A stretch of DNA of 64,000 bases from Eledone cirrhosa (GCA_964016885.1 OZ024756.1:4960001-5024000), one strand, 5' to 3'. Positions 15,001-63,905 are shown, counted from the stretch's first letter. Notes: generated by a model from the sequence alone, not told the origin. Program-made: numbers and translations.

Positions 15001-17970
15001 TGTTGTGAGGTATATTTGATTGTTGGTTCATTGCTATCTCTAGTACTGTTGTTGTGATGTATATTTGATTGTTGGTTCATTGCTATCTCTACTATTGTTG
15101 TTGTGATGTATATTTGATTGTTGGTTCATTGCTATCTCTACTACTGTTGTTGTGATGTATATTTGATTGTTGGTTCATTGCTATCTCTACTACTGTTGTT
15201 GTGAGGTATATTTGATTGTTGGTTCATTGCTATCTCTACTACTGTTGTTGTGATGTATATTTGATTGTTGGTTCATTGCTATCTCTACTACTGTTGTTGT
15301 GATGTATATTTGATTGTTGGTTCATTGCTATCTCTGCTACTGTTGTTGTGATGTATATTTGATTGTTGGTTCATTGCTATCTCTACTACTGTTGTTGTGA
15401 TGTATATTTTATTGTTGGTTTATTGCTATCTCTACTACTGTTGTTGTGATGTATATTTGATTGTTGGTTCATTGCTATCTCTGCTACTGTTGTTGTGATG
15501 TATATTTGATTGTTGGTTCATTGCTATCTCTACTACTCTTGTTGTGAGGTATATTTGATTGTTGGTTCATTGTTATCTCTACTACTGTTGTTGTGATGTA
15601 TATTTGATTGTTGGTTCATTGTTATCTCTACTACTGTTGTTGTGATGTATATTTGATTGTTGGTTCATTGCTATCTCTACTACTGTTGTTGTGAGGTATA
15701 TTTGATTGTTGGTTCATTGTTATCTCTACTACTGTTGTTGTGATGTATATTTGATTGTTGGTTCATTGCTATCTCTACTACTGTTGTTGTGAGGTATATT
15801 TGATTGTTGGTTCATTGCTATCTCTACTACTGTTGTTGTGATGTATATTTGATTGTTGGTTCATTGCTATCTCTGCTACTGTTGTTGTGATGTATATTTG
15901 ATTGTTAGTTCATTGCTATCTCTACTACTGTTGTTGTGATGTATATTTGATTGTTAGTTCATTGCTATCTCTACTACTGTTGTTGTGATGTATATTTGAT
16001 TGTTGGTTCATTGCTATCTCTACTACTGTTGTTGTGATGTATATTTGATTGTTGGTTCATTGCTATCTCTAGTACTGTTGTTGTGAGGTATATTTGATTG
16101 TTGGTTCATTGCTACCTCTAGTACTGTTGTTGTGAGGTATATTTGATTGTTGGTTCATTGCTATCTCTACTACTGTTGTTGTGATGTATATTTGATTGTT
16201 GGTTCATTGCTATCTCTACTACTGTTGTTGTGATGTATATTTGATTGTTGGTTCATTGCAATCTCTAGTACTGTTGTTGTGATGTATATTTGATTGTTGG
16301 TTCATTGCTACCTCTAGTACTATTGTTGTGATGTATATTTGATTGTTGGTTCATTGCTATCTCTACTACTGTTGTTGTGACGTATATTTGATTGTTAGTT
16401 CATTGCTATCTCTAGTACTGTTGTTGTGATGTATATTTGATTGTTGGTTCATTGCTATCTCTACTACTGTTGTTGTGATGTATATTTGATTGTTGGTTCA
16501 TTGCTATCTCTACTACTGTTGTTGTGATGTATATTTGATTGTTGGTTCATTGCTATCTCTAGTACTGTTGTTGTGAGGTATATTTGATTGTTGGTTCATT
16601 GCTATCTCTACTACTGTTGTTGTGAGGTATATTTGATTGTTAGTTCATTGCTATCTCTACTACTGTTGTTGTGATGTATATTTGATTGTTAGTTCATTGC
16701 TATCTCTAGTACTGTTGTTGTGAGGTATATTTGATTGTTGGTTCATTGCTATCTCTACTACTGTTGTTGTGAGGTATATTTGATTGTTAGTTCATTGCTA
16801 TCTCTACTACTGTTGTTGTGATGTATATTTGATTGTTAGTTCATTGCTATCTCTAGTACTGTTGTTGTGAGGTATATTTGATTGTTGGTTCATTGCTATC
16901 TCTACTACTGTTGTTGTGAGGTATATTTGATTGTTAGTTCATTTGTATCTCTACTACTGTTGTTGTGATGTATATTTGATTGTTAGTTCATTGCTATCTC
17001 TACTACTGTTGTTGTGATGTATATTTGATTGTTAGTTCATTGCTATCTCTAGTACTGTTGTTGTGAGGTATATTTGATTGTTGGTTCATTGCTATCTCTA
17101 CTACTGTTGTCGTGAGGTATATTTGATTGTTAGTTCATTGCTATCTCTACTACTGTTGTTGTGATGTATATTTGATTGTTGGTTCATTGCTATCTCTGCT
17201 ACTGTTGTTGTGATGTATATTTGATTGTTAGTTCATTGCTATCTCTACTACTGTTGTTGTGATGTATATTTGATTGTTAGTTCATTGCTATCTCTACTAC
17301 TGTTGTTGTGATGTATATTTGATTGTTGGTTCATTGCTATCTCTACTACTGTTGTTGTGATGTATATTTGATTGTTGGTTCATTGCTATCTCTAGTACTG
17401 TTGTTGTGATGTATATTTGATTGTTGGTTCATTGCTACCTCTAGTACTGTTGTTGTGAGGTATATTTGATTGTTGGTTCATTGCTATCTCTACTACTGTT
17501 GTTGTGATGTATATTTGATTGTTGGTTCATTGCTATCTCTACTACTGTTGTTGTGAGGTATATTTGATTGTTGGTTCATTGCTATCTCTACTACTGTTGT
17601 GAGGTATATTTGATTGTTAGTTCATTGCCATCTCTACTACTGTTGTTGTGATGTATATTTGATTGTTAGTTCATTGCTATCTCTACTACTGTTGTTGTGA
17701 TGTATATTTGATTGTTGGTTCATTGCTATCTCTACTACTGTTGTTGTGATGTATATTTGATTGTTAGTTCATTGCTATCTCTACTACTGTTGTTGTGATG
17801 TATATTTGATTGTTGGTTCATTGCTATCTCTACTACTGTTGTTGTGATGTATATTTGATTGTTAGTTCATTGCTATCTCTACTACTGTTGTTGTGATGTA
17901 TATTTGATTGTTGGTTCATTGCTATCTCTACTACTGTTGTTGTGATGTATATTTGATTGTTGATTCATTG
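1..17970. repeat. 49-bp satellite array, about 365 monomers, running off the left edge
   Basis: Unit TACTGTTGTTGTGA(G/T)GTATATTTGATTGTT(G/A)GTTCATTGCTATCTCTAC recurs with period 49 (positions 1 and 50). Occasional monomers lack one GTT. Confidence 0.99.
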
Positions 17971-18686: not shown

Positions 18687-18696
18687 TATATATATA

Positions 18697-18950
18697 TCAA
18701 TGATATTAATAAAAGGAAACTATATTTATAACACCATATTTATTCTATTATATATATTTTAACTTTGGTGCGCACTCATTAGATAAAATACAAAGTTTGT
18801 TTTATAAATATTGACATGTCCAGGAACGAGACCTTCACGGTTCACGTTTTACCTGATATTATACTCCAGAAAACTTGTCGAGTGCTTCGAATCAGTTATA
18901 AATATATATATTTGTTGAACTACCAAACAATTAAATATTCCTTTGTTTAT
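18697..18950. mobile_element. HHR family 1 element with inverted 5' part and degenerate ribozyme
   Basis: 18697-18853 matches 22165-22331 in the same orientation, while 18856-18950 matches the reverse complement of 22073-22165. The core is mutated (CTAATGA on minus) and partly deleted. Confidence 0.75.
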
Positions 18951-18972
18951 ATATGTATATATATATATACAA

Positions 18973-19166
18973 AAATATTTAACCCCGACGGCAGAGCTCA
19001 AGCCGTTTCGACGGCTATTTCTGGACTCAGAGTCCAGAAATAGCCGTCGAGACGGCTTGAGCTCTGTCGTCGAGGTTAAACATTTTCCTATTACTGACTC
19101 TACTACCCTAACTATTGAGTACTCTGGTGCGTTATGGTCCACCTGGTTCCTTACCACACCTACTTT
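18973..19166. mobile_element. HHR family 2 hairpin element (3' half of a hammerhead) in (TA)n
   Basis: About 55-bp inverted arms are centred near 19030. The minus arm reads GAAA-CGGC-TTGAGCTCT-GCCG-TC. The tail is homologous to 34420-34500 and 53200-53285. Confidence 0.75.
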
Positions 19167-19227
19167 ATATATATATATATAATCGAATATAAAAGAAAGA
19201 TAAACACAGATATAAACATATGTATTC

Positions 19228-19453: not shown

Positions 19454-19513
<60 letters not shown>

Positions 19514-19551
19514 ATATTAATAAATGGAAACTATATTTATAAAACCATATT

Positions 19552-19616
19552 TATTTCATTATATATATTTCAAGGATACCAAGTTAAATCATGGTATGCC
19601 TTCATCAGACAAATTA
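19552..19616 (-). ncRNA. Type I minimal hammerhead ribozyme (family 1)
   Basis: Reverse-complement copy of 19698-19762 with intact CTGATGA and GAAA. Confidence 0.75.
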
Positions 19617-19697
19617 CAATATATAACAGTTTTACAAATAGATATTGACGTACCCTTTCAAAAAGATGACCGTTGCTTTTGGAGGCCATCCAAATTG

Positions 19698-19762
19698 TAT
19701 TTTGTCTGATGAAGGCATACCATGATTTAACTTGGTATCCTTGAAATATATATAATGAAATA
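19698..19762 (+). ncRNA. Type I minimal hammerhead ribozyme (family 1)
   Basis: TATTTTGT-CTGATGA-AGG(C)ATACCA..TGGTATCCTT-GAAA-T-ATAT-A-TA|ATGAAATA. Stem I has 8 bp including 2 GU, stem II is long, and stem III is palindromic. Confidence 0.8.
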
Positions 19763-19918
19763 AATATGGTTTTATAAATATAGTTTCCATTTATTAATAT
19801 TGTATATCTACTCCAAATATTTGTCGAGTGCTTTATATCAGTTATAATAATATTTGCTTGTTGTATCCCAACAATTTAAATAGAACTTTTGCATATATAT
19901 ATATATATATATATATAT

Positions 19919-20444
19919 GGTGGTAGAATACTGGAAGCTAATATCCGTAGTGGTTGAGCACTCAGTCCATGGGACGAGTTAGGTAGAAGTGGTTACACAA
20001 CAGTTAGTTCCCCATACCGAGAACAATTGTTTCACCTTAACGGATCCTCACCTCGTAATGGGCATGGTTATACGGAACAGGAATACAACCGTACGAACGC
20101 GCATGCGCAGAAACCCGTCACTTCACACAGGCAATTAATTTTTCACACGTTGTCCACACGTCTCGAAGCACCTATTGCATATCTACAAACCTCCGGATTG
20201 GATGAATTATTGTAACATCAATATTTTTTCTTATCAACTAAAAACTTTTCGGACTTTCGCAGTTATCTTCCTTACATCTCTGGCACGCATTTTAGTATTG
20301 CCAGTGTGAAGTGACGGGTTTCTGCGCATGCGCGTTCGTACGGTTGTCCTTCCTGTTCCGTATAACCATGCCCATTACGAGCTGAGGATCCGCTAAGGTG
20401 AAACAATTGTTCTCGCTATAGTGAACTAACTGTTGTGTAACCAC

Positions 20445-20448
<4 letters not shown>
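19919..20448. mobile_element. HHR family 4 inverted-duplication element in (TA)n
   Basis: About 150-bp inverted arms at 19984-20135 and 20297-20448, with an extra tail at 19919-19983 on the left arm. Confidence 0.85.
20378..20415 (+). ncRNA. Type I minimal hammerhead ribozyme (family 4)
   Basis: CGAG-CTGAGGA-TCC GCTAA GGT-GAAA-C-AATT-G-TT|CTCG. The inverted copy at 20018-20055 has the core mutated to GTGAGGA. Confidence 0.8.
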
Positions 20449-20505
<57 letters not shown>

Positions 20506-22072: not shown

Positions 22073-22075
<3 letters not shown>

Positions 22076-22335
22076 CAAAGGGATATTTAATTTGTTGGTA
22101 ATTCAACAAATATATATATTTATAACAGATTCGAAGCACTCGACAAGTTTTCTGGAGTATAATATTAATGATATTAATAAATGGAAACTATGTTTATAAA
22201 ACCATATTTATTCTATTATATATATATTTCAAGGGTACCAAAACTTTGTTACGCCCTCATCAGATAAAATACAAAGTTTCTTTTATAGATGACATATCCA
22301 GGAATGAGACCTTCACGGTTCAGGTTTTACCGTTA
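22073..22335 (-). mobile_element. HHR family 1 element, colinear copy
   Basis: Contiguous homolog of 18697-18950 and 19510-19892. The 3' end abuts (TA)n. Confidence 0.8.
22209..22271 (-). ncRNA. Type I hammerhead ribozyme (family 1 variant)
   Basis: TATTTTAT-CTGATGA-GGGCGTAACAAAG..TTTTGGTACCCTT-GAAA-TATATATA-TA|ATAGAATA. Stem I pairs over 8 bp. Confidence 0.78.
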
Positions 22336-22340
22336 TATTA

Positions 22341-22414
<74 letters not shown>

Positions 22415-22608
22415 GATAAATCTACCACTCAATGGTAGGGTCTAAACCGTATAAAGAACTCAATGTAATCCGTATGTAGAAGTCGTGAAGCAAAGTTTAA
22501 AATACAAAATTTTTTATCAACGATATAATTCAATTGGATACAGAGTCAAAATAGAAATATTAAAACAATGAAATTAAACACAAAACTGTTAATTCATAGT
22601 AAAACACA

Positions 22609-22742
22609 ATATTTTACGATCGTTTCTGGGGGGTAGTTCCCTGTATGTTCATTCAATTATTGATCTATGTAAAACATATTACAAAATATCATAGTAAGAA
22701 AAATATACATACGTCTTCACTACCCGCCGTCTTCAGAAATAA
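22609..22742 (-). ncRNA. Type I minimal hammerhead ribozyme with about 100-nt stem II domain (family 7)
   Basis: TTATTT-CTGAAGA-CGGCGGGTAG..CTACCCCCCA-GAAA-C-GATC-G-TA|AAATA. Confidence 0.78.
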
Positions 22743-22744
22743 GA

Positions 22745-22883
22745 TTATTTCTGAAGACAGCGGGTAGTGAAGACGTATGTATATTTTTCTTACTATAATA
22801 TTTTGTAATATGTTTTACATAGATCAATAATTGAATGAACATACAGGGAACTACCCCTACCCCCAGAAACGATCGTAAAATAA
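22745..22883 (+). ncRNA. Type I minimal hammerhead ribozyme with about 100-nt stem II domain (family 7)
   Basis: TTATTT-CTGAAGA-..GGGTAG..CTACCC..-GAAA-C-GATC-G-TA|AAATAA. Confidence 0.78.
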
Positions 22884-22951
22884 TGTGTTTTACTATGAAT
22901 TAGCAGTTTTGTGTTTAATTTCACGGTTTTAATATTTCTCTCTCTATATAT

Positions 22952-24961: not shown

Positions 24962-27870
24962 ACACCACTGTCTTACAACACCACTGTCTTACAACACCAC
25001 TGTGTTACAACACCACTCTGTTACAACACCACTCCGTTACAACAGCACTCCGTTACAACACCACTCCGTTACAACACCACTCCGTTACAACACCACTCCG
25101 TTACAACACCACTCTGTTACAACACGACTCTGTTACAACACGACTCTGTTACAACACCACTCCGTTACAACACCACTCTGTTACAACACCACTCTGTTAC
25201 AACACCACTCTGTTACAACACCACTCTGTTACAACACCACTCTGTTACAACACCACTCCGTTACAACACCACTCCGTTACAACACCACTCCGTTACAACA
25301 CCACTCCGTTACAACACCACTCCGTTACAACACCACTCCGTTACAACTCCACTCTGTTACAACACCACTCTGTTACAACACCACTCCGTTACAACACCAC
25401 TCCATTACAACTCCACTCTGTTACAACTCCACTCTGTTACAACTCCACTCTGTTACAATTCCACTCTGTTACAACTCCACTCCGTTACAACACCACTCCG
25501 TTACAACTCCACTCTGTTACAACTCCACTCTGTTACAACTCCACTCTGTTACAACTCCATTCTGTTACAACTCCACTCTGTTACAACTCCACTCTGTTAC
25601 AACTCCACTCTGTTACAACTCCACTCCGTTACAACACCACTCCGTTACAACTCCACTCAGTTACATCACTCCGTTACAACACCACTCTGTTACAACACCA
25701 CTCCGTTACAACACCACTCTGTTACAACACCACTCCGTTACAACACCACTCCGTTACAACTCCACTCCGTTACAACACCACTCCGTTACAACTCCACTCT
25801 GTTACAACTCCACTCCGTTACAACTCCACTCCGTTACAACTCCACTCCGTTACAACTCCACTCCGTTACAACTCCACTCTGTTACAACTCCACTCTGTTA
25901 CAACTCCACTCTGTTACAACTCCACTCTGTTACAACTCCACTCCGTTACAACTCCACTCCGTTACAACTCCACTCCGTTACAACTCCACTCCGTTACAAC
26001 TCCACTCCGTTACAACTCCACTCCGTTACAACTCCACTCCGTTACAACTCCACTCTGTTACAACTCCACTCTGTTACAACTCCACTCCGTTACAACGCCA
26101 CTCCGTTACAACGCCACTCCGTTACAACGCCACTCCGTTACAACGCCACTCCGTTACAACGCCACTCCGTTACAACGCCACTCCGTTACAACGCCACTCC
26201 GTTACAACACCACTCCGTTACAACTCCACTCCGTTACAACTCCACTCCGTTACAACACCACTCAGTTACAACTCCACTCCGTTACAACACCACTCCGTTA
26301 CAACTCCACTCTGTTACAACTCCACTCTGTTACAACTCCACTCCGTTACAACTCCACTCCGTTACAACTCCACTCTGTTACAACACCACTCCGTTACAAC
26401 ACCACTCCGTTACAACACCACTCCGTTACAACTCCACTCCGTTACAACTCCACTCTGTTACAACTCCACTCCGATACAACTCCGCTCTGTTACAACACCA
26501 CTCTGTTACAACACCACTCTGTTACAACACCGCTCTGTTACAACACCACTCTGTTACAACACCACTCCGTTACAACACCACTCCGTTACAACACCACTCC
26601 GTTACAACTCCACTCCGTTACAACTCCACTCTGTTACAACTCCACTCTGTTACAACTCCACTCCGTTACAACACCACTCCGTTACAGCACCACTCCGTTA
26701 CAACACCACTCCGTTACAACACCACTCCGTTACAACACCACTCCGTTACAACACCACTCCGTTACAACACCACTCCGTTACAACTCCACTCCGTTACAAC
26801 TCCACTCCGTTACAACTCCACTCCGTTACAACACCACTCTGTTACAACACCACTCCGTTACAACACCACTCCGTTACAACACCACTCCGTTACAACACCA
26901 CTCCGTTACAACTCCACTCCGTTACAACTCCACTCCGTTACAACTCCACTCCGTTACAACACCACTCCGTTACAACACCACTCCGTTACAACTCCACTCC
27001 GTTACAACACCACTTTGTTACAACACCACTCTGTTACAACACCACTCCGTTACAACACCACTCCGTTACAACACCACTCCGTTACAACACCACTCTGTTA
27101 CAACACCACTCTGTTACAACACTACTCCGTTACAACACTACTCCGTTACAACTCCACTCCGTTACAACTCCACTCCGTTACAACTCCACTCCGTTACAAC
27201 TCCACTCCGTTACAACTCCACTTCGTTACAACTCCACTCCGTTACAACACCACTCCGTTACAACACCACTCCGTTACAACACCACTCAGTTACATCTCCA
27301 CCCCGTTACAACACCACTCCATTACAACTCCACTCTGTTACAACTCCACTCTGTTACAACTCCACTCTGTTACAACTCCACTCCGTTACAACTCCACTCC
27401 GTTACAACTCCACTCCGTTACAACACCACTCCGTTACAACTCTACTCTGTTACAACTCCACTCTGTTACAACTCCACTCCGTTACAACTCCACTCCGTTA
27501 CAACTCCACTCCGTTACAACACCACTCTGTTACAACACCACTCTGTTACAACACCACTCTGTTACAACACCACTCCGTTACAACGCCACTCCGTTACAAC
27601 TCCACTCCGTTACAACTCCACTCCGTTACAACACCACTCCGTTACAACACCACTCCGTTACAACACCACTCCGTTACAACTTCACTCCGTTACAACACCA
27701 CTCTGTTACAACACCACTCTGTTACAACACCACTCTGTTACAACACCACTCTGTTACAACACCACTCCGTTACAACTCCACTCCATTACAACTCCACTCC
27801 GTTACAACTCCACTCTGTTACAACTCGACAACTCCACTCCGTTACAACACCACCCCCGTTACAACACCCC
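24962..27870. repeat. 16-bp minisatellite, about 180 copies
   Basis: Unit TTACAAC(A/T)CCACTC(C/T)G. The 16-aa periodicity of the 1093-aa ORF equals three units. Confidence 0.97.
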
Positions 27871-28665: not shown

Positions 28666-28864
28666 CGTTATTCCGGGTTGAATCGGAGGTAACCACAGTA
28701 AGTAAGGTACTCAATACATTGCAGAGTATAAAAGTTTTAATATAGATGAGATTCTACAGGACTAGAACTGTTTCATTCTTTAGAAATCATCAGGAATCAG
28801 ATTCCTGATGATTTCTAAAGAATGGAACAGTTCTAGTCCTGTAGAATCTCATCTATATTAAAAC

Positions 28865-28865
<1 letters not shown>
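28666..28865. mobile_element. HHR family 3 fold-back element in (TA)n
   Basis: Near-perfect inverted arms are centred at 28799, with a tail at 28666-28733. A homolog lies at 34131-34312. Confidence 0.85.
28750..28798 (-). ncRNA. Compact type I hammerhead ribozyme (family 3)
   Basis: GATTC-CTGATGA-TTTC TAAA GAAT-GAAA-CAG TTCTAGTC CTG-TA|GAATC. The plus-strand twin at 28800-28848 has GGAA instead of GAAA. Confidence 0.87.
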
Positions 28866-29639: not shown

Positions 29640-30788
29640 AAGAATTGTGGGTGAGAGGAATGGATATCTGAGTCTACAGAGTTATGTGGTGAGGTAAATT
29701 GTGGGTGAGTCTACAGAGATATGTGGTGAGGTAAATTGTGGGTGAGAGGAATTGGTGAGTCTACAGAGATATGTGGTGAGGTAAATTGTGGGTGAGAGAA
29801 GTGGGTATGTCTAGAGAGATATGTGGTAAGGTAAATTGTGGGTGAGAGAAATGGGTGTGTCTAGAGAGATATGTGGTGAGGTAAATTGTGGGTGAGAGAA
29901 GTGGGTGAGTCTAGAGAGATATGTGGTGAGGTAAATTGTGGGTGAGAGGAATGGGTGAGTCTAGAGAGATATGTGGTGAGGTAAATTGTGGGCGAGAGGA
30001 ATGGGTGTGTCTAGAGAGATATGTGGTGAGGTAAATTGTGGGTGAGAGAAGTGGGTGAGTCTAGAGAGATATGTGGTGAGGTAAATTGTGGGTGAGAGGA
30101 ATGGGTGAGTCTAGAGAGATATGTGGTGAGGTAAATTGTGGGTGAGAGGAATGGGTGAGTCTAGAGAGATATGTGGTGAGGTAAATTGTGGGTGAGAGGA
30201 ATGGGTGAGTCTAGAGAGATATGTGGTGAGGTAAATTGTGGGTGAGAGGAATGGGTGTGTCTAGAGAGATATGTGGTGAGGTAAATTGTGGGTGAGAGGA
30301 ATGGGTGAGTCTACAGAGATATGTGGTGAGGTAAATTGTGGGTGAGAGGAATGGGTGTGTCTAGAGAGATATGTGGTGAGGTAAATTGTGGGTGAGAGGA
30401 ATGGGTGTGTCTAGAGAGATATGTGGTGAGGTAAATTGTGGGTGAGAGGAATGGGTGAGTCTAGAGAGATATGTGGTGAGGTAAATTGTGGGTGAGAGAA
30501 GTGGGTGAGTCTAGAGAGATATGTGGTGAGGTAAATTGTGGGTGAGAGGAATGGGTGAGTCTACAGAGATATGTGGTGAGGTAAATTGTGTGTGAGAGAA
30601 GTGGGTGAGTCTAGAGAGATATGTGGAGAGGTAAATTGTGGGTGAGAGAAGTGGGTGAGTCTACAGAGATATGTGGTGAGGTAAATTGTGGGTGAGAGAA
30701 GTGGGTGAGTCTAGAGAGATATGTGGAGAGGTAAATTGTGGGTGAGAGAAGTGGGTGAGTCTACAGAGATATGTGGGTGAGGTAAATT
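29640..30788. repeat. 50-bp minisatellite, about 22 copies
   Basis: Unit GTAAATTGTGGGTGAGAGGAATGGGTGAGTCTAGAGAGATATGTGGTGAG. Confidence 0.97.
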
Positions 30789-33873: not shown

Positions 33874-34088
33874 GATATTACATAAATGGAAACTATATTT
33901 ATAAAACCATATTTATTTCATTATACATATTTCAGGGATACAACAAGTATAATGAAATAAATATGGTTTTATAAATATAGTTTCCATTTATTTAATATCG
34001 TATATCTACTCCCAAAACTTGTCGAGTGCTTTATATCAGTTATAAAATATTTACTTGTTGTATCCCAACAATTTTAAATAGAACTTGT
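33872..34088. mobile_element. HHR family 1 inverted-duplication element, ribozyme truncated
   Basis: Inverted arms at 33872-33926 and 33947-34001. The tail matches 19804-19892. Confidence 0.8.
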
Positions 34089-34089
34089 G

Positions 34090-34130
<41 letters not shown>

Positions 34131-34312: not shown

Positions 34313-34318
34313 TATATA

Positions 34319-34502
34319 GGAAAAGATTCAGGACCCCGACGGTAGAGCTCCTGTCGTTTTGACAGCTAGGTCCGGATCTGTCGAAACGGCTGGAGCTCAG
34401 CCGTCGGGGTCCTGAATCTCTTCATATTACCCACTCTACTACCCCAAGTATTGAGTACTCTGGTGGGTTATGGTCCACCTGGTATCTTACCACACCTTCT
34501 CT
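34319..34502. mobile_element. HHR family 2 fold-back element
   Basis: Inverted arms around 34370. The plus arm reads GAAA-CGGCTG GAGCT CAGCCG-TC|GGGGTCC. Confidence 0.8.
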
Positions 34503-34503
34503 G

Positions 34504-34535
<32 letters not shown>

Positions 34536-34705
34536 ATATGTCTGTATGTATATATGTCTGTATGTATGTATATATGTCTGTATATATATCTGTATAAATA
34601 TATGTATGTATGTATATATGTCTGTATATATATCTGTATATATATGTATGTATGTATATATGTCTGTATATATATATTTGTATGTATATATACGTATATG
34701 ATGGT

Positions 34706-37024: not shown

Positions 37025-39859
37025 TATGAGGTGTGTCGAAAATGTATCCGACTTTATTTTATTCCTGTGGGAAGTAATGACGTTAGTGATATATGTTCTT
37101 TGGAAAGTAAAGCCTCATACGTTCATGTGGGTGTTTTTTTTTTTTTTTGGTGAGCTCGCTGGATGCGACCGTCCTTGTCAGGCAACCAGTGGGTGAGGTA
37201 CTGTACTATTTATTCATTACATTTACATTTCGGCCGCGATAACGGAACGTATAGATCACCGATCTCTCGGGATATCTGGAGACGAGATGTATGTGTACGG
37301 TTAAGACCCAGGTACCAAAGCTCAGCCGTCACAATGGAAGTATACAGCATCACCAAGACCCCTAAATCACATCAGGTGTGAGAGAAATCAAGGTGATGCT
37401 GAGCAATTTTTTTTTCGACTACTGAGGCGTTGTGCATCCTTAATACACAGCGGAAGGATAAACAGTTACGGCGGCGTACTACCAAGAAAATAATCCGACT
37501 TCGTGAAGTAGTTCGGTACAAGAGACCAGGCCTGTGTGGCTCACAAGACTGGTAGTGGTACTATGACAACATCCTGGGTCATTCGTTGAAGTTGATCCAC
37601 TGGTAGTTGTATTATGACAACACCCTGGCTCATTCGTTGAAGTTGATCCACTGGTAGTTGTATTATGACAACACCCTGGCTCATTCGTTGAAGTTGATCC
37701 ACTGGTAGTTGTATTATGACAACACCCTGGCTCATTCGTTGCAACTGATCCACTGATAGTTGTATTATGACAACACCCTGGCTCATTCGTTGAAGTTGAT
37801 CCACTGATAGTTGTATTATGACAACACCCTGGCTCATTCGTTGAAGTTGATCCACTGGTAGTTGTATTATGACAACACCCTGGCTCATTCGTTGCAACTG
37901 ATCCACTGATAGTTGTATTATGACAACACCCTGGCTCATTCGTTGAAGTTGATCCACTGATAGTTGTATTATGACAACACCCTGGCTCATTCGTTGAAGT
38001 TGATCCACTGGTAGTTGTATTATGACAACACCCTGGCTCATTCGTTGAAGTTGATCCACTGATAGTTGTATTATGACAACACCCTGGCTCATTCGTTGAA
38101 GTTGATCCACTGGTAGTTGTATTATGACAACACCCTGGCTCATTCGTTGAAGTTGATCCACTGGTAGTTGTATTATGACAACACCCTGGCTCATTCGTTG
38201 AAGTTGATCCACTGGTAGTTGTATTATGACAACACCCTGGCTCATTCGTTGAAGTTGATCCACTGGTAGTTGTATTATGACAACACCCTGGCTCATTCGT
38301 TGCAACTGATCCACTGATAGTTGTATTATGACAACACCCTGGCTCATTCGTTGCAACTGATCCACTGATAGTTGTATTAACAACACCCTGGCTCATTCGT
38401 TGAAGTTGATCCACTGGTAGTTGTATTATGACAACACCCTGGCTCATTCGTTGAAGTTGATCCACTGGTAGTTGTATTAACAACACCCTGGCTCATTCGT
38501 TGAAGTTGATCCACTGGTAGTTGTATTATGACAACACCCTGGCTCATTCGTTGCAACTGATCCACTGATAGTTGTATTATGACAACACCCTGGCTCATTC
38601 GTTGCAACTGATCCACTGATAGTTGTATTAACAACACCCTGGCTCATTCGTTGAAGTTGATCCACTGGTAGTTGTATTATGACAACACCCTGGCTCATTC
38701 GTTGCAACTGATCCACTGATAGTTGTATTAACAACACCCTGGCTCATTCGTTGAAGTTGATCCACTGGTAGTTGTATTATGACAACACCCTGGCTCATTC
38801 GTTGCAACTGATCCACTGATAGTTGTATTGACAACACCCTGGCTCATTCGTTGAAGTTGATCCACTGGTAGTTGTATTATGACAACACCCTGGCTCATTC
38901 GTTGCAACTGATCCACTGATAGTTGTATTAACAACACCCTGGCTCATTCGTTGAAGTTGATCCACTGGTAGTTGTATTATGACAACACCCTGGCTCATTC
39001 GTTGAAGTTGATCCACTGGTAGTTGTATTATGACAACACCCTGGCTCATTCGTTGAAGTTGATCCACTGGTAGTTGTATTATGACAACACCCTGGCTCAT
39101 TCGTTGAAGTTGATCCACTGGTAGTTGTATTATGACAACACCCTGGCTCATTCGTTGCAACTGATCCACTGGTAGTTGTACTATGACAACACCCTGGCTC
39201 ATTCGTTGAAGTTGATCCACTGGTAGTTGTATTATGACAACACCCTGGCTCATTCGTTGAACCTGATCCACTGGTAGTTGTACTATGACAACACCCCGGC
39301 TCATTCGTTGCAACTGATCCACTGATAGTTGTATTATGACAACACCCTGGCTCATTCGTTGAACCTCATCCACTGGTAGTTGTACTATGACAACACCCTG
39401 GCTCATTCGTTGAACCTCATCCACTGGTAGTTGGATTATGACAACACCCCGGCTCATTCATTGCAGCTGATCCAAGGGGTTTTTGGTGCAAAGAAAGTTT
39501 CATTCATCAGGCTCCCTGACACCCGAGATGCAGCTTCATCTGACTTCTGATTCTTCCCCATAATGAAGAAGTCCCTGAAAGACTCTCGCTTTGAGAGCCG
39601 AGAGGACATCGTGCGGACTGCAATGTCATAGATGAGAGCCATTATGGAAGAAACATTTCAAACGTGATTCGAGCGGTCGTGGTTCGATCTCTGGTGGAAG
39701 TGTACAGAAGCATAAGGAGCCTACTTCGAAAGGGAGTAAACAACTGAAACCCGACCTCATCTCGTACCACTCCCTCCACCACTACTCACCCAGTACAAAG
39801 CCCTCCACCCGTGCCCGCCCCCAAGCATAAGGTCGGATATATTTACGACAGCCCTGTTA
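37025..39859 (+). mobile_element. Decayed mariner (DD34D-type) DNA transposon with an internal minisatellite
   Basis: Degenerate TIRs: TATGAGGTGTGTCGAAAATGTATCCGAC (37025-37052) and GTCGGATATATTTACGACAGCCCTGTTA (39832-39859). Pseudo-translation gives ISGDEMYVYG*DPGTKAQPSQWK, IKVMLSNFFFDY*GVVH, RLREVVRYKRPGL, DNTPAHS, DF*FFPIMKKSLK and WKCTEA*GAYFE. The N-terminal HTH region is deleted. Confidence 0.9.
37547..39474. repeat. 51-bp minisatellite, about 38 copies, inside the mariner transposase
   Basis: Unit TGGTAGTTGTATTATGACAACACCCTGGCTCATTCGTTGAAGTTGATCCAC. Some 49-bp variants give a 100-bp dimer period at 38.4-38.9 kb. Confidence 0.98.
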
Positions 39860-42658: not shown

Positions 42659-43710
42659 AATATTAGCAACATAAGCTAGGCTCAAGAGGGAACCAGTAGG
42701 TTAGATACTAGGTTTGTATTGTACAGTCATACGTAGACACTTCTACACTTGTAATATTAGCAACATAAGCTAGGCTCAAGGGGGAACCAGTAGGTTAGAT
42801 ACTAGGTTTGTATTTTACAGTCATACTTAGACACTTCCACACTTGTAATATTAGCAACATAAGCTAGGCTCAAGGAGGAACCAGTAGGTTAGATACTAGG
42901 TTTGTATTGTACAGTCATACGTAGACACTTCTACACTTGTAATATTAGCAACATAAGCTAGGCTCAAGGAGGAACCAGTAGGTTAGAAACTAGGTTTATA
43001 TTTTACAGTCATACTTAGACATTTCTACACTTGTAATATTAGCAACATAAGCTAGACTCAAGGGGGAACCAGTAGGTTAGAAACTAGGTTTATATTTTAC
43101 AGTCATACTTAGACATTTCTACACTTGTAATATTAGCAACATAAGCTAGACTCAAGGGGGAACCAGTAGGTTAGAAACTAGGTTTATATTTTACAGTCAT
43201 ACTTAGACACTTCTACACTTGTAATATTAGCAACATAAGCTAGGCTCAAGGGGGAACCAGTAGGTTAGAAACTAGGTTTATATTTTACAGTCATACTTAG
43301 ACATTTCTACACTTGTAATATTAGCAACATAAGCTAGACTCAAGGGGGAACCAGTAGGTTAGAAACTAGGTTTATATTTTACAGTCATACTTAGACATTT
43401 CTACACTTGTAATATTAGCAACATAAGCTAGACTCAAGGGGGAACCAGTAGGTTAGATACTAGGTTTGTATTTTACAGTCATACTTAGACACTTCTACAC
43501 TTGTAATATTAGCAACATAAGCTAGGCTCAAGGGGGAACCAGCAGGTTAGATACGAGGTTTATATTTTACAGTCATACTTAGACACTTCTACACTTGTAA
43601 TATTAGCAACATAAGCTAGGCTCAAGGGGGAACCAGTAGGTTAGATACTAGGTTTGTATTGTACAGTCATACTTAGATACTTAGACATACTTCATACTTC
43701 TACACTTGCA
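42659..43710. repeat. 94-bp tandem repeat, about 11 copies
   Basis: Unit begins AATATTAGCAACATAAGCTAGGCTCAAGGGGGAACCAGTAGG, with starts at 42753 and 42847. Confidence 0.97.
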
Positions 43711-43855: not shown

Positions 43856-44940
43856 TTTCTTTATTTGCCACAAGGGCGCACAAGTAAAGGGGGACAAAAC
43901 AAAGACACATGCCGGGGATTTTACATACAATCGTGTATAAATATTGAAACAAACAAATTAAACAATCGAAATCCCAAATAGGGGAAGGCGCCACAAATGA
44001 CTTGTTTAATACCCCGTAGATAGAACAACCCTCAACTTCAGGAGCGTGTTGTGCAAGTGCTCCTTTCTTCCTTTTGCTCTCTTCTTCAACCTACAGGTTT
44101 ATATATAGAGAAGGCCCAATCACTCGGGCCATTTTTGCTACATTCAAACACCTTTTCAGTAAATTTACTGGGGTGCAGTGCCTCTATCTCCACTCTGATT
44201 CTCCTTCTAAAGTGGTACCTAAAGAAGGGAATGAGTTGTTGTCCGGAGATAAAGGCATCTGTCCTCAGTCCTCTCAATCTCGTCCACCATATAACCTCTT
44301 TCACCATAGCCACTATACAGAGGAAAACCGCCTCTCTTTCGTTTTTGAAAGTAGTTGGCGGTTTGATCCTTACTATGGACTCGGCAGTCAACTGGATTTG
44401 CCCCATACGTGACAGCAGTTGTTCTGTGTAGCTCCATAGGTCAGTTACGCCCGGGCAGTGTACAATTGCGTGCAAGACAGTTTCAATGTCCCACCCGCAT
44501 CTTGTACACGTCCTCTTGGAAGGATCCCTGCCGAGGCGTCCGTGCCTGTAGATCTTGTCACGAATGGTAGAGCTCCTCGGGAACACTGCCAGGCCAGGGA
44601 CCTTAGGAAGTTGTCCATAGGTCCCGGGCGGAAAGTCCTACCGAACAGACTGGTGAGTCCGTCGCCCTCGACGCCCAGAGTCTCTCCGAGCACGTCGTCG
44701 CCCTCGACGCCCAGAGTCTCTCCGAGCAGGTCGTCGCCCTCGTGGCGTACTAACCCTCTATAGAATGTCGAAGTGGAGTCTCTACTGATTGCTGTGCCCG
44801 CTTGACAGAGGACTGTGAGCGCTTGAGGGCATTCAATGTGCCAGGCGCACATCTTCTTCGGTCTCCGCTTGATCCAGGACTCCAGCTCCGTCAGCGAGAC
44901 AAGTTGCGGGCAGGCCTGTCTCACAAACGGTGCCCACACC
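43856..44940 (-). pseudogene. 5'-truncated L1/Tx1-like LINE: ORF2 C-terminus with zinc-binding region, plus 3' UTR
   Basis: NFLRSLAWQCSRGALP/(frameshift)RDKIYRHG..CTRCGWDIETVLHAIVHC..LW is a zf-RVT-like CxxC-H-C. AATAAA lies at the 3' end, and GATA/GGAT repeats flank both sides. There is an internal 33-bp duplication near 44660-44740. Confidence 0.82.
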
Positions 44941-52790: not shown

Positions 52791-52866
<76 letters not shown>

Positions 52867-52984
52867 GTATGGATTCACCGAACATTTATTATAATGCTCG
52901 GTGTGCTTGTAAACAAACATCCCGAATTAAGCCTTACAGTGTCTAGCAACCATTGTTGCTCATTTGTTCAACACTGACAAAGGA

Positions 52985-53027
52985 ACGTTGTACGAGTTTC
53001 AAGCTTATTAGCTATCGTCAGCAACGT
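52985..53027 (-). ncRNA. 43-nt minimal hammerhead ribozyme (family 8) within TA-flanked insert 52863-53120
   Basis: ACGTTG-CTGACGA-TAGC TAATAA GCTT-GAAA-CTCG-TA|CAACGT. Perfect 6-bp stem I. Confidence 0.8.
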
Positions 53028-53128
53028 ATACCTTCCTGCCAGATGATTGAACGTCTGAAAGTATATACTTTCCTTATGAATAGAGTGGGAAATGAAATTT
53101 CGTTTCATTTTTTCCGTTTATATATACA

Positions 53129-53200
<72 letters not shown>

Positions 53201-53201
<1 letters not shown>

Positions 53202-53338
53202 CGAAGGAAATGTGGTAAGGAACCAGTTGGACCATAACGCACCAAAGTACTCAATACTTAGGGTTGTAGAGTGGGTAATAGGAACGAGTAGGACCCCGAC
53301 GGCTGAGCTCAAGCCGTTTCGACGGCTAATTCTGGACT
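53201..53338 (-). mobile_element. HHR family 2 single arm in (TA)n
   Basis: Homolog of 19030-19166 and 34375-34502, reading GAAA-CGGCT..AGCCG-TC. Confidence 0.8.
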
Positions 53339-55292: not shown

Positions 55293-59077
<3,785 letters not shown>

Positions 59078-59740
59078 CAGTATTTTCCGTTGTGTTGTAA
59101 TATAAATATTACACACAGTAGATTATCAGCTCACGTAGAGTTTGCTCGACGGTTCCAGTTGTAGTTCCAAAAGTAATCCGGAGAAAAATAGAAAGATTTG
59201 AATGGATACAGTTTAGTTGAAAGGAATTTATTGACACGTGTTTCTATAACAGTTACATAACCTAAAACAGCTATCTACAAACTTTTAGTTATGCAGACAT
59301 TCAATATTTCAATGTTATTATTTACTGTCATTTCATCAGAATAATATTACTGAGGACCTATTTAGTTTTTATAGAGAATATTAGGAGGGAGGGGTGAAGT
59401 TGTTAGAAGAATAGTTGAAGGAGTGGTTTTTCGATAGCAGTGAGAATTCTTGGTGGCAGTGAGTAATTAGATTCCCATCTGTTGTTTTGACATTTTTTAT
59501 AGAATATATTATTGGTTATTTTTCTAAATCTATAGAAGGATTAGAGATAGTGAAGATATGCGTGGTTGGTTTTGTGTTTGCACTTAATTAACATTCAGGC
59601 TTAAATTTTTCTTTCAAGTGTACGTATCCTTTCACCCACGCATTCACACACAAATATATTTGCACACCTCTACAAAATACATATACACACAATTCACATA
59701 TTCATACTTACATATATATACACATGCATACACATATATA

Positions 59741-61096
59741 TACGATTCGGCGGAAATAACTGATATTGTGGGGTTATTTATCGCCTTTAGACTCCAGGAA
59801 AAATTCAGCAATCTCCACGGCGGAATATACCGCGACGATGTTCTCCTCCTAGCTAAAAACCTTAATAACCAAAAACTAGAAAAACTACGCAAAGATATAA
59901 GAAAACTACTACTCGAAATAGGACTAACTATAACATATGAATACAACCTTAAAGTAGTTAACTTCCTGGATGTCACACTCAATTTAAACTCTGGTTTGAT
60001 TAAACCGTTTCATAAATTGAATGAAAATCTCAAATACGTAAATGTTGGGTCTAACCACCCCATCTCTATAATTAAATCTATCCCTAAAAATATTTCCCTT
60101 AGAATCTCGGGTCTATCTTCTAACATACAAGTATTTAAGGAACACGCCGAGTACTACGATAACGCCCTTAGTAAAGCAGGCTACCTCAACAAAATAGAGT
60201 ACATAGATGGGAACAATCAAAACACCCAAAATAAATCCCACATAGGTAGATATAATAACACAACACCAAACCACACTTACTACCATAGTATGCACACCAG
60301 TAAACCAACAAACAAAACTAATAGAAAGCGATGCAAAGAGTACTTATGGTATAACCCCGAATACAATAGCTCCATTAGTACAAATTTACCAGTACTCTTC
60401 TTTAAAATAATTAAAAGACATTTTCCCACATCACACAAATACCACAAAATCCTAAACCCTACCACTATAAGACTGTCATACTCTACAGCGTTAAACCTTG
60501 AACAACACATAAAAAAGATCAATACTAGAAGGTTAAACGAAAACACTAAGAACTTAAGTACAAAGAACACAAAAAAAACAGTAGACAATACACTACAGAA
60601 CATAAATAAACCACACCTAAGTTCGTCCGCAATACTACTCCAGAGAAAACCCAACGTACACAACTGTAACTGCACCTATCCTGACAACTGCCCCCTCGGC
60701 AATAACTGCCTGGAAAAAAATATTATTTATAAGTGTACCATTAAATCCGGAGGCAACGAGTGGTATTACGTGGGATCAACGGCAACATCGTTTAAATCTC
60801 GATTGTATAGGCATTCTTACTCAATAAAACACCAGAGCCAAAGAAATGTAACAACTCTAGCAGAAAAAGCTTGGACGCTCAGGGATAGCGATCAAAAGTT
60901 TACCCTAAAATGGGAAAAATTAGCTAAAACCCAAAGCTTTTCCAGGAGCCAAAATTTCTGCAAATTGTGTAATCTTGAGATTTATTACATAATCACACAC
61001 AAGAAGAAACTGCTGAATAACAGAATTGAACGAACATTATTCTGCCGTCACAGAACTAAAACCCTTTTTTCCCACTACAAGCCGAATATTACATAA
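59741..61096 (+). CDS. Penelope-like RT C-terminal half, thumb, Cys linker and GIY-YIG endonuclease (5'-truncated, no internal stops)
   Basis: YDSAEITDIVGL, catalytic GIYRDD (59828-59839 for YRDD), VNFLDVTLNL, SNHP, WYNPEY, CNCTYPDNCPLGNNC, IIYKC..YYVGST..FKSR...H, CKLCNLE, LNNRIE..CRH. The first 41 codons of the track ORF are non-coding inverted arm. Confidence 0.9.
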   Translation, partial: YDSAEITDIVGLFIAFRLQEKFSNLHGGIYRDDVLLLAKNLNNQKLEKLRKDIRKLLLEIGLTITYEYNLKVVNFLDVTLNLNSGLIKPFHKLNENLKYVNVGSNHPISIIKSIPKNISLRISGLSSNIQVFKEHAEYYDNALSKAGYLNKIEYIDGNNQNTQNKSHIGRYNNTTPNHTYYHSMHTSKPTNKTNRKRCKEYLWYNPEYNSSISTNLPVLFFKIIKRHFPTSHKYHKILNPTTIRLSYSTALNLEQHIKKINTRRLNENTKNLSTKNTKKTVDNTLQNINKPHLSSSAILLQRKPNVHNCNCTYPDNCPLGNNCLEKNIIYKCTIKSGGNEWYYVGSTATSFKSRLYRHSYSIKHQSQRNVTTLAEKAWTLRDSDQKFTLKWEKLAKTQSFSRSQNFCKLCNLEIYYIITHKKKLLNNRIERTLFCRHRTKTLFSHYKPNIT

Positions 61097-61420
61097 AAGA
61101 GGGACATCCCCCAACTATATAAACCTTAATCTAGTTAGAAAAATATAAAAACAATCTCTTCTCAACATATATTAATAACCTTAAATTACCATACTAATAA
61201 TGAAAAGATATGCTGATGAGAATAGGTACAAATATGCGATAATGAATGTGTCTAAAAACGTCCATAAGTATGTATATATATGTGAAAATGTATATAAATA
61301 AGTAAATATATATATATGTTTGATGTGTATAGTTAGATGTAAGTGTATTCATGTATTAAAGTGCTTATATATATATATATATATGTATATGTGTGTATAT
61401 GTATGTTTGTGTATGTATGC

Positions 61421-61462
<42 letters not shown>

Positions 61463-62046
61463 GTATATATGTATGTATATATGTGTATGTATATATGTGT
61501 ATATGGATGTGTATGTATGTGTATGTGTGTACACATGGACTAGAGGATGTATGTATATATGTGTGTGTCTATACGTGTGTATATAAAGATAAGTTGAGTA
61601 TGAAAATGTATACACATGAGCGCGTATGTATGTACATGAATACATGTGTGTATATATATGTGTATGCATGTGTATATATATGTAAGTATGAATATGTGAA
61701 TTGTGTGTATATGTATTTTGTAGAGGTGTGCAAATATATTTGTGTGTGAATGCGTGGGTGAAAGGATACGTACACTTGAAAGAAAAATTTAAGCCTGAAT
61801 GTTAATTAAGTGCAAACACAAAACCAACCACGCATATCTTCACTATCTCTAATCCTTCTATAGATTTAGAAAAATAACCAATAATATATTCTATAAAAAA
61901 TGTCAAAACAACAGATGGCAATCTAATTACTCACTGCCACCAAGAATTCTCACTGCTATCGAAAAACCACTCCTTCAACTATTCTTCTAACAACTTCACC
62001 CCTCCCTCCTAATATTCTCTATAAAAACTAAATAGGTCCTCAGTAA

Positions 62047-62095
62047 TATTATTCTGATGAAATGACAGTAAATAATAACATTGAAATATTGAATG
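62047..62095 (+). ncRNA. Hammerhead-like motif in the PLE 3' arm (twin at about 59298-59346, minus)
   Basis: TATT-CTGATGA-AATG..CATT-GAAA-TATTG-AATG. Core and stem II are present with palindrome AATATT, but the cleavage site and stem I register are ambiguous. Confidence 0.5.
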
Positions 62096-62205
62096 TCTGC
62101 ATAACTAAAAGTTTGTAGATAGCTGTTTTAGGTTATGTAACTGTTATAGAAACACGTGTCAATAAATTCCTTTCAACTAAACTGTATCCATTCAAATCTT
62201 TCTAT

Positions 62206-62242
62206 ATTTTATATATATATATATATATTTTATATATATATA

Positions 62243-62326
<84 letters not shown>

Positions 62327-62515
62327 ATATATGTATATATATATTTTATATATGTATATATATATATATTTTATATATGTATATATATATATATTTTATA
62401 TATGTATATATATATTTTATATATATATATATATATTTTATATATATATATATATATTTTATATATATATATATATATTTTATATATATATATATATATT
62501 TTATATATATATATA

Positions 62516-62582
<67 letters not shown>

Positions 62583-62880
62583 ATATATATATTGTAGACA
62601 TGTATATATATATATTTTATATATATATATATATATATATTGTATATGTATATGCATATATATATATACGCATATATATTGTAGACATGTATATATATAT
62701 ATATATATATATATAGTGAGTATATATATATATTGTGTGTATTTATATTGTGTGTATATATTATATATATTGTGTATATATATATGCACACATATATTAT
62801 ACATATTGTATATATATATATATATATATATATAATATGCATATGCATAGATGTATGTCGGTTTCGTACTTGGTTTGTGA

Positions 62881-62933
<53 letters not shown>

Positions 62934-63199: not shown

Positions 63200-63905
63200 C
63201 TGCTGGGTGAGTGTAGGGGGTTGTGTGGTTGTAGGGGTGAGTGTGGTGGTAGGGTCAGTGTGGTTGCTGTGTCGGTTTGTAGGCGTGAGTGTTGTTGCTG
63301 AGTGTGTTTGTAGGGAGAGTGTGGTTACTGAGTGGGTTTGTAGGCGTGAGTGTGGTTGCTGATTGTGTTTGTAGGTAGAGTGTGGTTGCTGTGTCGGTTT
63401 GTAGGCGTGAGTGTTGTTGCTGAGTGTGTTTGTGGGGAGAGTGTGGTTACTGAATGGGTTTGTAGGCGTGAGTGTGGTTGCTGAGTGGGTTTGTAGGGCG
63501 AGTGTGGTTGCTGAGTGTTTGTAGGGGGGATTGTAGTTGTAGTGGGGAGTGTGGTTGCTGAGTGTGTTTGTAGGCGGGAGTTGGTTGTTGAGTGTGTTTG
63601 TAGGGTGAGTGTGGTGGTTGAGTGGGTTTGTAGGCGTGAGTGTGGTTGTTGAGGGTTTGTAGGGGGGGGGGGAGTTGCTGAGTGGGTTTCTAGGGGCGAG
63701 TGTGGTTGTAGTGGCGAGTGTGGTTGCTGAGTGGGTTTGTAGGGGGTATTGTGGTTGTATGCGTGAGTGCGTTCGCATTTGCGACTGTGGTAGTATGCGT
63801 GTGTTCGTATTTGCGTGTGTGGTTGTAGGTGCGAGTGTGTTCGTATCTGCGAGTGTGGTTGCTGGGTGTGCTCGTAGATACGAGTGTGATTGCTGAGTGT
63901 GTTTA
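63200..63905. repeat. Degenerate GT-rich minisatellite of about 31 bp
   Basis: Unit close to GTAGGCGTGAGTGTGGTTGCTGAGTGGGTTT. Confidence 0.85.

Follow-up and report, generated by a model that had tools for sequence, protein, structure and literature searches.

A 5'-truncated Penelope-like element with Hydra-type motifs in a (TA)n array of Eledone cirrhosa: a likely recent insertion predicted unable to make its own reverse transcriptase

Penelope-like elements (PLEs) of the Hydra clade are described as having a C-terminal endonuclease without CCHH, a CxCX5C linker and CxxC and CxH motifs around the Glu and Asn, together with a divergent reverse transcriptase (RT) motif 4(B), a YRDD site and N-terminal RWK and DKT motifs, and as lacking IFD and CxC (PMC8557442). 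According to the same description they are generally short (<3 kb), carry canonical hammerheads near the 3' end and insert into (TA)n, a preference with which the linker is connected by association only; the supplement lists 27 Hydra families, 26 of them with (TA)n preference and one from Octopus bimaculoides, and the Hydra family Penelope-13_HM is recorded there as having a 5'-truncated copy attached in inverted orientation. Published work (PMC8557442) thus already covers Hydra elements, including their preference for (TA)n, 5'-inverted copies and an octopus family. The protein of an anole Poseidon element nicks and extends both strands of AT-rich DNA, its reverse transcription begins at two internal sites of the RNA template, the stretch between them being the tail, and hammerhead cleavage is dispensable for insertion in vitro (PMC11167929). 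Here, a PLE occupying positions 59078-62205 of a 64,000-nucleotide stretch of Eledone cirrhosa DNA (GCA_964016885.1 OZ024756.1:4960001-5024000, referred to as the window) was analyzed computationally. We consider it very probable that the element is a 5'-truncated copy with Hydra motifs lying in a (TA)n array, that it arose by a likely recent two-strand target-primed insertion, and that it is predicted to be unable to make its own RT.

Structure, target array and age of the insertion

The element is bounded on both sides by (TA)n arrays (feature coordinates are given in Table 1). Its left arm was found to be the reverse complement of its right arm over 556 bp with a single mismatch (59474/61919), confirming the near-identical inverted arms reported in a preliminary description of this locus. 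The left arm extends 110 nt farther than the right, and this stretch, which is a Penelope-type tail, has no right-hand partner; between the arms, which are unequal in length, lie 1,906 nt of unique sequence. The left part represents 666 nt of the element's 3' end in minus-strand orientation, and the plus strand from 59744 to 62205 is a 2,462-nt fragment of the element (the direct copy). Both 3' ends are oriented outward, the truncated 5' ends abut at 59743/59744, and the inner end of the inverted arm falls inside the internal TA/TATG microsatellite.

Two punctuation motifs mark the flanking arrays. An 11-nt motif was found 16 times in the window, 14 times in the left array (57458-58833) and twice in the right array (62592 and 62679), with no occurrence elsewhere, and a second motif of 15 nt was found 18 times in the left array and once in the right. 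The confinement of these motifs to the two flanking arrays indicates that one older array was interrupted by the element. For this one copy, the motif counts bear out both the shared punctuated microsatellite on the two flanks and the insertion into a pre-existing (TA)n field that had been proposed in the preliminary description. Moreover, the last 12-15 bases of the left flank reappear at the start of the right flank. When a duplication is assumed, a 21-bp array unit is left, which is the commonest spacing of the right flank (8/14); when no duplication is assumed, 13 or 15 bp are left, a length seen in 0/36 spacings. The flank repeat may be a target-site duplication, for which such a match is mild evidence inside a microsatellite.

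The divergence between the arms was 0.18% (95% range 0.005-1.0%). With an octopus-element calibration in which a distance of 0.09 corresponds to 25 million years (PMC13282606), the insertion would be approximately 0.25 million years old (0.006-1.4), provided that the octopus rate applies and that the arms were not homogenized later. The undamaged reading frame agrees with a young insertion. From the arm divergence, the insertion is likely to be recent, as had been suggested, although homogenization of the arms may instead have produced their near-identity.

Coding capacity and clade

A stop-to-stop frame of 502 codons spans 59588-61096. Its first 52 codons lie inside the inverted arm and 450 are left from 59744; 450 open codons would occur by chance with a probability of approximately 1e-13 at the base composition of the window. 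The open frame of about 450 uninterrupted codons noted earlier was therefore confirmed, although not as a whole gene, for the front half of the RT is missing. In a 706-position profile built from full-length relatives, the 450 aa cover positions 318-704, so that the frame starts in the middle of the RT and approximately 320 residues are missing, the first catalytic aspartate motif among them. The motif A aspartate was found near residue 250 in 7/7 full-length relatives and is absent from the truncated frame, whose sole Met is residue 183. The full-length relatives are approximately 700-720 aa long; the nearest two have lengths of 759 and 806 aa. A complete RT with motif A and a start codon, as expected of an autonomous copy, was not found in the frame at 59744-61096. 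No second piece of a Hydra ORF (open reading frame) was detected in the window by tblastn or by profile search, so there is no upstream exon or tandem copy within 64 kb to supply the missing half. The start in mid-RT, the loss of motif A and the single Met at residue 183 together indicate a copy that is predicted from its sequence to be unable to encode a working RT.

The motifs by which the element had been recognized, namely YRDD, CxCX5C, a C-terminal GIY-YIG and a downstream CxxCxxE..CxH, were all located in the 450-aa frame, at aa 29-32 (YRDD), 308-316 (CxCX5C), 327-344 (IIY/YVG), 406-412 (CxxCxxE) and 434-436 (CxH). The endonuclease and YRDD are in one frame, with the endonuclease C-terminal to the RT. 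In a 98-row alignment, 12/12 invariant columns are retained in the endonuclease, including the two Tyr, Arg, His, Glu and Asn of the catalytic core, whose catalytic role is taken from the description in PMC8557442, and the Cys and His of CxxC and CxH are invariant or nearly so across the rows. An endonuclease model built with this alignment reached a pLDDT of 92.4, and residues 325-428 of it matched the I-TevI catalytic domain with a Z of 9.9 and an rmsd of 2.2 over 89/92 aligned residues. The next three structural matches gave Z values of 6.1-7.7, including T4 EndoII (7.7) and UvrC (6.7), two of them being titled or known as GIY-YIG nucleases. Pfam returned no family for the endonuclease part; one relative, P0058, matched GIY-YIG below the cut-off. 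According to the alignment and the model, the endonuclease half is intact. Being also confidently folded, it is a ready substrate for testing whether the linker confers (TA)n preference.

A database search gave 28 relatives at E ≤ 1e-3 among 6,030 candidates, the best of them 36-37% identical over the full length, and a profile search gave 5,072 cluster representatives at E ≤ 1e-30. A close relative was not found in the protein database, where the best match had 57% identity over 30% of the query. RVT_1 of Pfam was matched by 1/14 aligned members. No match at E ≤ 0.001 was found for the 450-aa protein in a PDB sequence search, and the 98-row profile reached retron and group II intron RTs in PDB at E 0.04-0.14. 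The whole-protein model was poor (pLDDT 64, pTM 0.34), with the RT palm matching many ferredoxin-like folds at Z 5-6, and for this reason the palm was not confirmed by fold.

With respect to the clade, the element has a single Cys between IIY and YVG and no CCHH, and two Cys are found at that place in the canonical clades of the published alignment (PMC8557442). The surviving end of motif 4(B) follows the Hydra rows of that alignment and not the canonical rows. The strict CxCX5C pattern was found in 33 of the 52 retrieved proteins covering the linker region. The N-terminal RWK/DKT region is lost with the truncation; among 36 relatives of at least 680 aa, RWK was found in 14, DKT in 27 and DKG in none. 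Relative P0003 was identical by eye to the published Hydra-1_Amil at 71/89 residues, which ties the retrieved relatives to the published Hydra clade. In an unrooted FastTree of 41 rows (the 40 best and one other of the 86 proteins spanning at least 420 query residues, the other 45 being left out), the element grouped with P0065, P0108 and P0058 with SH-like support of 98 and an ordinary branch length. Penelope/Poseidon, Neptune and Nematis were ruled out because the CCHH inside their GIY-YIG core is missing in the element, and Naiad/Chlamys because their endonuclease is N-terminal to the RT. The Hydra-1_Obim family was ruled out by 43/83 identical residues (by eye) and a different hammerhead. 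These clade features and the published alignment support the earlier assignment to the Hydra type rather than to Penelope/Poseidon or Neptune and, judged from sequence, the element is of a different family from Hydra-1_Obim within the Hydra clade.

Mode of insertion

The following route is proposed for the origin of the copy. A full-length relative elsewhere in the genome would have supplied the RNA and an RT-endonuclease protein of approximately 770 aa, and its GIY-YIG domain, to judge from the retained catalytic residues and from the anole work (PMC11167929), would have nicked the two strands of the TA array approximately 12-15 bp apart. One nick would have primed at the inner start, now at 62205, and been extended by 2,462 nt to the middle of the RT; the other strand would have primed 110 nt farther out (59078) and been extended by 666 nt before halting in the internal microsatellite. 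Both products are present at the locus, and the priming that would have made them belongs to the model. The two unfinished cDNAs would then have been joined head to head at 59743/59744, perhaps over three shared bases. The last codon of the arm at the junction reads Tyr in frame, and Tyr precedes the corresponding Asp in 36/95 relatives; a 3-nt microhomology is possible, on weak evidence. Head-to-head joining of cDNAs would account for inverted arms whose 3' ends both point outward and for a tail confined to one side. In this reading the copy is a passenger, and its presence attests to recent activity of the family.

Several observations weigh against this interpretation. The two-strand priming route is extrapolated from another clade, and the 110-nt tail exceeds the 30-40 bp described for it (PMC11167929). 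The age is based on a single mismatch, and gene conversion or assembly polishing could have rejuvenated old arms. The FastTree had no outgroup and no labelled reference clades and is hence no test of the clade; the 450-aa protein was without a Pfam family at E ≤ 1, and Foldseek gave no match at E ≤ 0.001 for the endonuclease or whole-protein models, the top rows being RTs and GIY-YIG nucleases. The non-coding 3' region of 1,109 nt, or 1,219 nt with the tail, is several times longer than the approximately 140-310 nt counted by eye in six published Hydra consensi. The hammerhead stems at 62054 are unpopulated in the predicted ensemble, and the published Hydra hammerheads are canonical. Finally, self-priming on an antisense template has been proposed for head-to-head Penelope inversions with junction palindromes (PMC3846280).

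An inverted arm made by self-priming or template switching in a single insertion, and not by a second target-primed event, would fit the near-identity of the two arms, but the junction has no palindrome beyond TA repeats and the arm joins mid-ORF sequence. Moreover, the additional 110 nt of the arm are missing from the direct copy, which shows that the arm was not copied from the direct copy as it stands, and we regard this origin as unlikely. Little credence is given to an artefact of assembly or of read foldback: assembly is difficult where long inverted repeats are set among microsatellites, as noted for PLEs (PMC8557442), yet the arms differ at one site, are unequal in length and enclose the unique spacer, and several smaller elements of the window have the same layout. 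Long near-perfect inverted repeats and a possible TA-rich duplication could also recall capture of a PLE fragment by a foldback element or DNA transposon whose terminal inverted repeats measure 556 bp. Such an element is the least probable of these origins, to the point of being nearly negligible, as a 110-nt overhang keeps the repeats from being terminal, a microsatellite surrounds their inner end, a hammerhead core is present in them and PLEs are described with just this layout (PMC8557442). Two-strand target-primed insertion is the reading that we retain. The locus would then offer a clean single-locus case of a two-ended insertion with a one-sided tail, as the 2024 in vitro work predicts (PMC11167929).

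Table 1. Features of the element and of its flanking arrays (positions in the window)
Feature	Position	Strand	Basis or remark
Left part of punctuated (TA)n target array; also houses a short hammerhead element at ~58002-58110, core 58012	55300-59077		TRF period-2 array; punctuation motifs
Candidate target-site duplication, left copy, 12 bp (up to 15 bp counting three shared bases)	59066-59077	+	Suffix/prefix match; ambiguous within microsatellite
110-nt tail, distal 3' end, inverted copy only, terminal predicted hairpin	59078-59187	-	Arm comparison; fold -20.5 kcal/mol
Left arm: inverted 5'-truncated copy of the element's 3' end, 556 bp, hammerhead core at 59339	59188-59743	-	
Head-to-head junction	59741-59746	+	
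5'-truncated ORF, 450 aa: end of RT motif 4(B), YRDD (59828-59839), thumb, linker, endonuclease	59744-61096	+	
CxCX5C linker motif, Hydra-type	60665-60691	+	
GIY-YIG endonuclease without CCHH; CxxC before conserved Glu, CxH after conserved Asn	60722-61051	+	98-row alignment; fold model
Possible relic half-hammerhead: first core half at 61213, 4-bp stem I, cleavage triplet, second half broken	61205-61270	+	3/2000 shuffles, descriptor chosen after seeing the site
Internal TA/TATG microsatellite	61266-61750	+	Inverted arm ends within, at 61650
Right arm: 3' end of direct copy, 110 nt short of distal end	61650-62205	+	Arm comparison
12-codon motif like the N-terminus of Hydra proteins, no in-frame start, then stop	61974-62009	+	Mirror at 59419, minus strand
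Hammerhead core, 4-bp stem II, 5-bp stem III, GUC site, no stem I	62054-62101	+	Mirror at 59339; not predicted to fold as ribozyme
Right part of punctuated (TA)n target array, opening with candidate duplication	62206-62930		TRF; punctuation motifs

The 3' region, neighbouring repeats and described systems

The half-hammerhead begins 117 nt past the stop codon and may mark the original 3' end. It is followed by the microsatellite that the preliminary description had placed in the element's own 3' untranslated region and that is present there. Farther downstream, the 12-codon motif gave the top score among 42,075 unmasked codon positions, with 9.5 bits compared to at least 23.9 for true N-termini; its score was reached in 0/500 shuffles for one of three profile lengths and in 5-6/500 for the other two, and from its sequence it is possibly a decayed ORF start. 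Another N-terminus-like motif, noticed by eye at 61881, was dropped at a score of -2.4. The hammerhead core at 62054 has a 1-nt stem III loop, as in published Hydra motifs, and its core plus stem II was found in 3/1000 shuffles. Its stem I has 0 bp compared to 4-8 bp in the 8 other window cores that passed the same scan, and since the same defect is present in both arms, it was likely copied in that state. The likeness between the two hammerhead-like sites was marginal (21-30/1000 shuffles, with 18/1000 for an unrelated site and 270/500 for upstream sequence). In Rfam, no hammerhead was among the 25 matches at E ≤ 5, none of which reached its gathering score; the microRNA matches are due to the microsatellite. 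A bacterial promoter scan found nothing above shuffles and is irrelevant here, as its model is bacterial and the sequence eukaryotic.

The order of half-hammerhead, TA/TATG tract, N-terminus-like motif, second core and tail is suggestive only, and would fit a 3' end that was originally short, followed by an earlier TA target site and then by a decayed neighbour that had been captured. It is tentatively proposed, as a possibility that we rate well short of probable, that this Hydra family swapped its 3' end by readthrough of a decayed hammerhead and an old (TA)n site into an internally deleted Hydra-like neighbour, where reverse transcription now starts. Each signal of a composite end is weak, and at one locus a family trait and a local event look alike. 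If the proposal were correct, each new copy would carry a 480-bp TA/TATG microsatellite to a new locus, TA arrays would be spread as well as targeted by the element, and its protein would prime on a foreign 3' end, the property needed to mobilize short hammerhead families. Were a composite end a family trait, it would mean that foreign 3' ends are tolerated by Hydra proteins and that these proteins are able to seed microsatellites where genomes are TA-rich. No description of a Hydra element with a microsatellite-containing composite 3' end was found in the literature consulted; the O. vulgaris annotation supplement, Repbase or Dfam may hold the family.

The window contains several short non-coding hammerhead elements, many of them as head-to-head pairs. 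(TA)5 was found within 60-310 nt of 8/9 other cores compared to 29% of random unmasked positions, the sites not being independent. The preliminary description had named the element as a candidate driver of these families. With half of its RT lost this is impossible for the copy at hand, and no sequence link of its family to the short families was found. As that description had also stated, the arms share no clear homology with the short families: the best BLASTN match outside the element in the window had an E of 0.29-0.43, one of ten local alignments to the short families reached 6/500 shuffles, which is not significant after ten tests, and none of seven anchored comparisons of the main hammerhead core was below 163/1000. 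That the family, and not this copy, is the autonomous partner mobilizing the short elements is doubtful. The two share a layout of a hammerhead near the 3' end, head-to-head pairs and ends in (TA)n, one short family has two stop points, and animal non-LTR retrozymes have been argued to be PLE derivatives (bioRxiv 10.64898/2026.07.22.740005). However, the lack of significant similarity to any short family differs from the pLTR homology reported for 24/57 Xenopus families (bioRxiv 10.64898/2026.07.22.740005), other (TA)n-targeting PLEs are listed for octopuses (PMC8557442), and the window contains five or more mutually unrelated types of hammerhead, which makes several partners likely.

One short family without coding sequence contains a well-formed hammerhead of type I, with 5-8 bp in stem I, and has its ends in (TA)n. 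It was found at 19513-19893 (a head-to-head pair), 22074-22340, 33948-34090, 58002-58110 and 18690-18945; it has two alternative 3' stop points approximately 88 nt apart, and one of its copies shares the TA array with the Hydra element. A hexamer common to the element's tail (59145-59150, minus strand) and to this family (19823, 34021, 18877 and 22144) is located at a distance of 63-67 nt from the 3' end and precedes a stretch resembling a hairpin; the sharing was not significant in shuffles. Four more unrelated elements with hammerhead cores, three of them inverted pairs, were found at 21100-21873/22011, 19984-20449, 28733-28865 and 52862-53031 and are likely non-autonomous PLE derivatives.

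Other repeats were also recorded. A near-perfect 390-bp palindrome (94%) at 22553-22939 has no hammerhead match and holds the second-best Hydra N-terminus-like score of the window (4.8 bits, weak). A further interspersed family of short copies, 75-85% alike and adjoining TA runs, is present at 19031-19225, 34380-34584 and 53119-53338, with palindromic cores at 18972-19086 and 34316-34427. Positions 1-17970 are an 18-kb array of a 49-bp satellite (approximately 367 copies, 91-95% matches), and minisatellite arrays with periods 16, 50, 51, 94 and 30/61 at 24962-27868, 29702-30788, 37548-39474, 42659-43682 and 63238-63757 give rise to long spurious open frames. A 183-codon frame on the minus strand (44086-44637), with a weak zf-RVT match (E 0.018, below cut-off), is probably the C-terminal remnant of a non-LTR retrotransposon.

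Compared to described systems, the endonuclease has the GIY-YIG fold of I-TevI, T4 EndoII and UvrC at a sequence identity of 13-18% and, unlike these nucleases, is flanked on either side by additional Cys/His motifs. Poseidon PAc of Anolis carolinensis belongs to another clade (CCHH, no linker motif), and its tail is 30-40 bp and its ORF starts inside the hammerhead. In Pen1_Av of Adineta vaga, the 3' pLTR is set off from the ORF by a 0.9-1.5 kb spacer that is thought to be captured DNA (PMC3846280), which sets a precedent for a composite 3' region of such length; Pen1_Av is of the canonical Penelope clade and its spacer is unique host DNA, whereas that of the present element is a microsatellite and a block with possible Hydra remnants. 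Hydra-1_Obim of Octopus bimaculoides has the same clade and target, and its first 83 residues align with the element without gaps; its own 3' end is short, unlike that of the element. The element differs from published Hydra elements in its internal microsatellite, in the missing stem I of its hammerhead core and in two low-confidence insertions around the thumb and linker, partly common to P0065 and P0058; its direct copy has 2,462 nt though truncated, and a whole copy with such a 3' end would have approximately 3.5 kb or more. The element would add one divergent, recently active family to the Hydra clade, which was described in 2021 (PMC8557442). It resembles that clade in the order of RT and GIY-YIG, the linker, the lack of CCHH, the CxxC and CxH motifs, the divergent RT4(B) and YRDD, and likewise in its (TA)n target, its hammerhead core near the 3' end and its 5'-inverted truncated copy, as in Penelope-13_HM.

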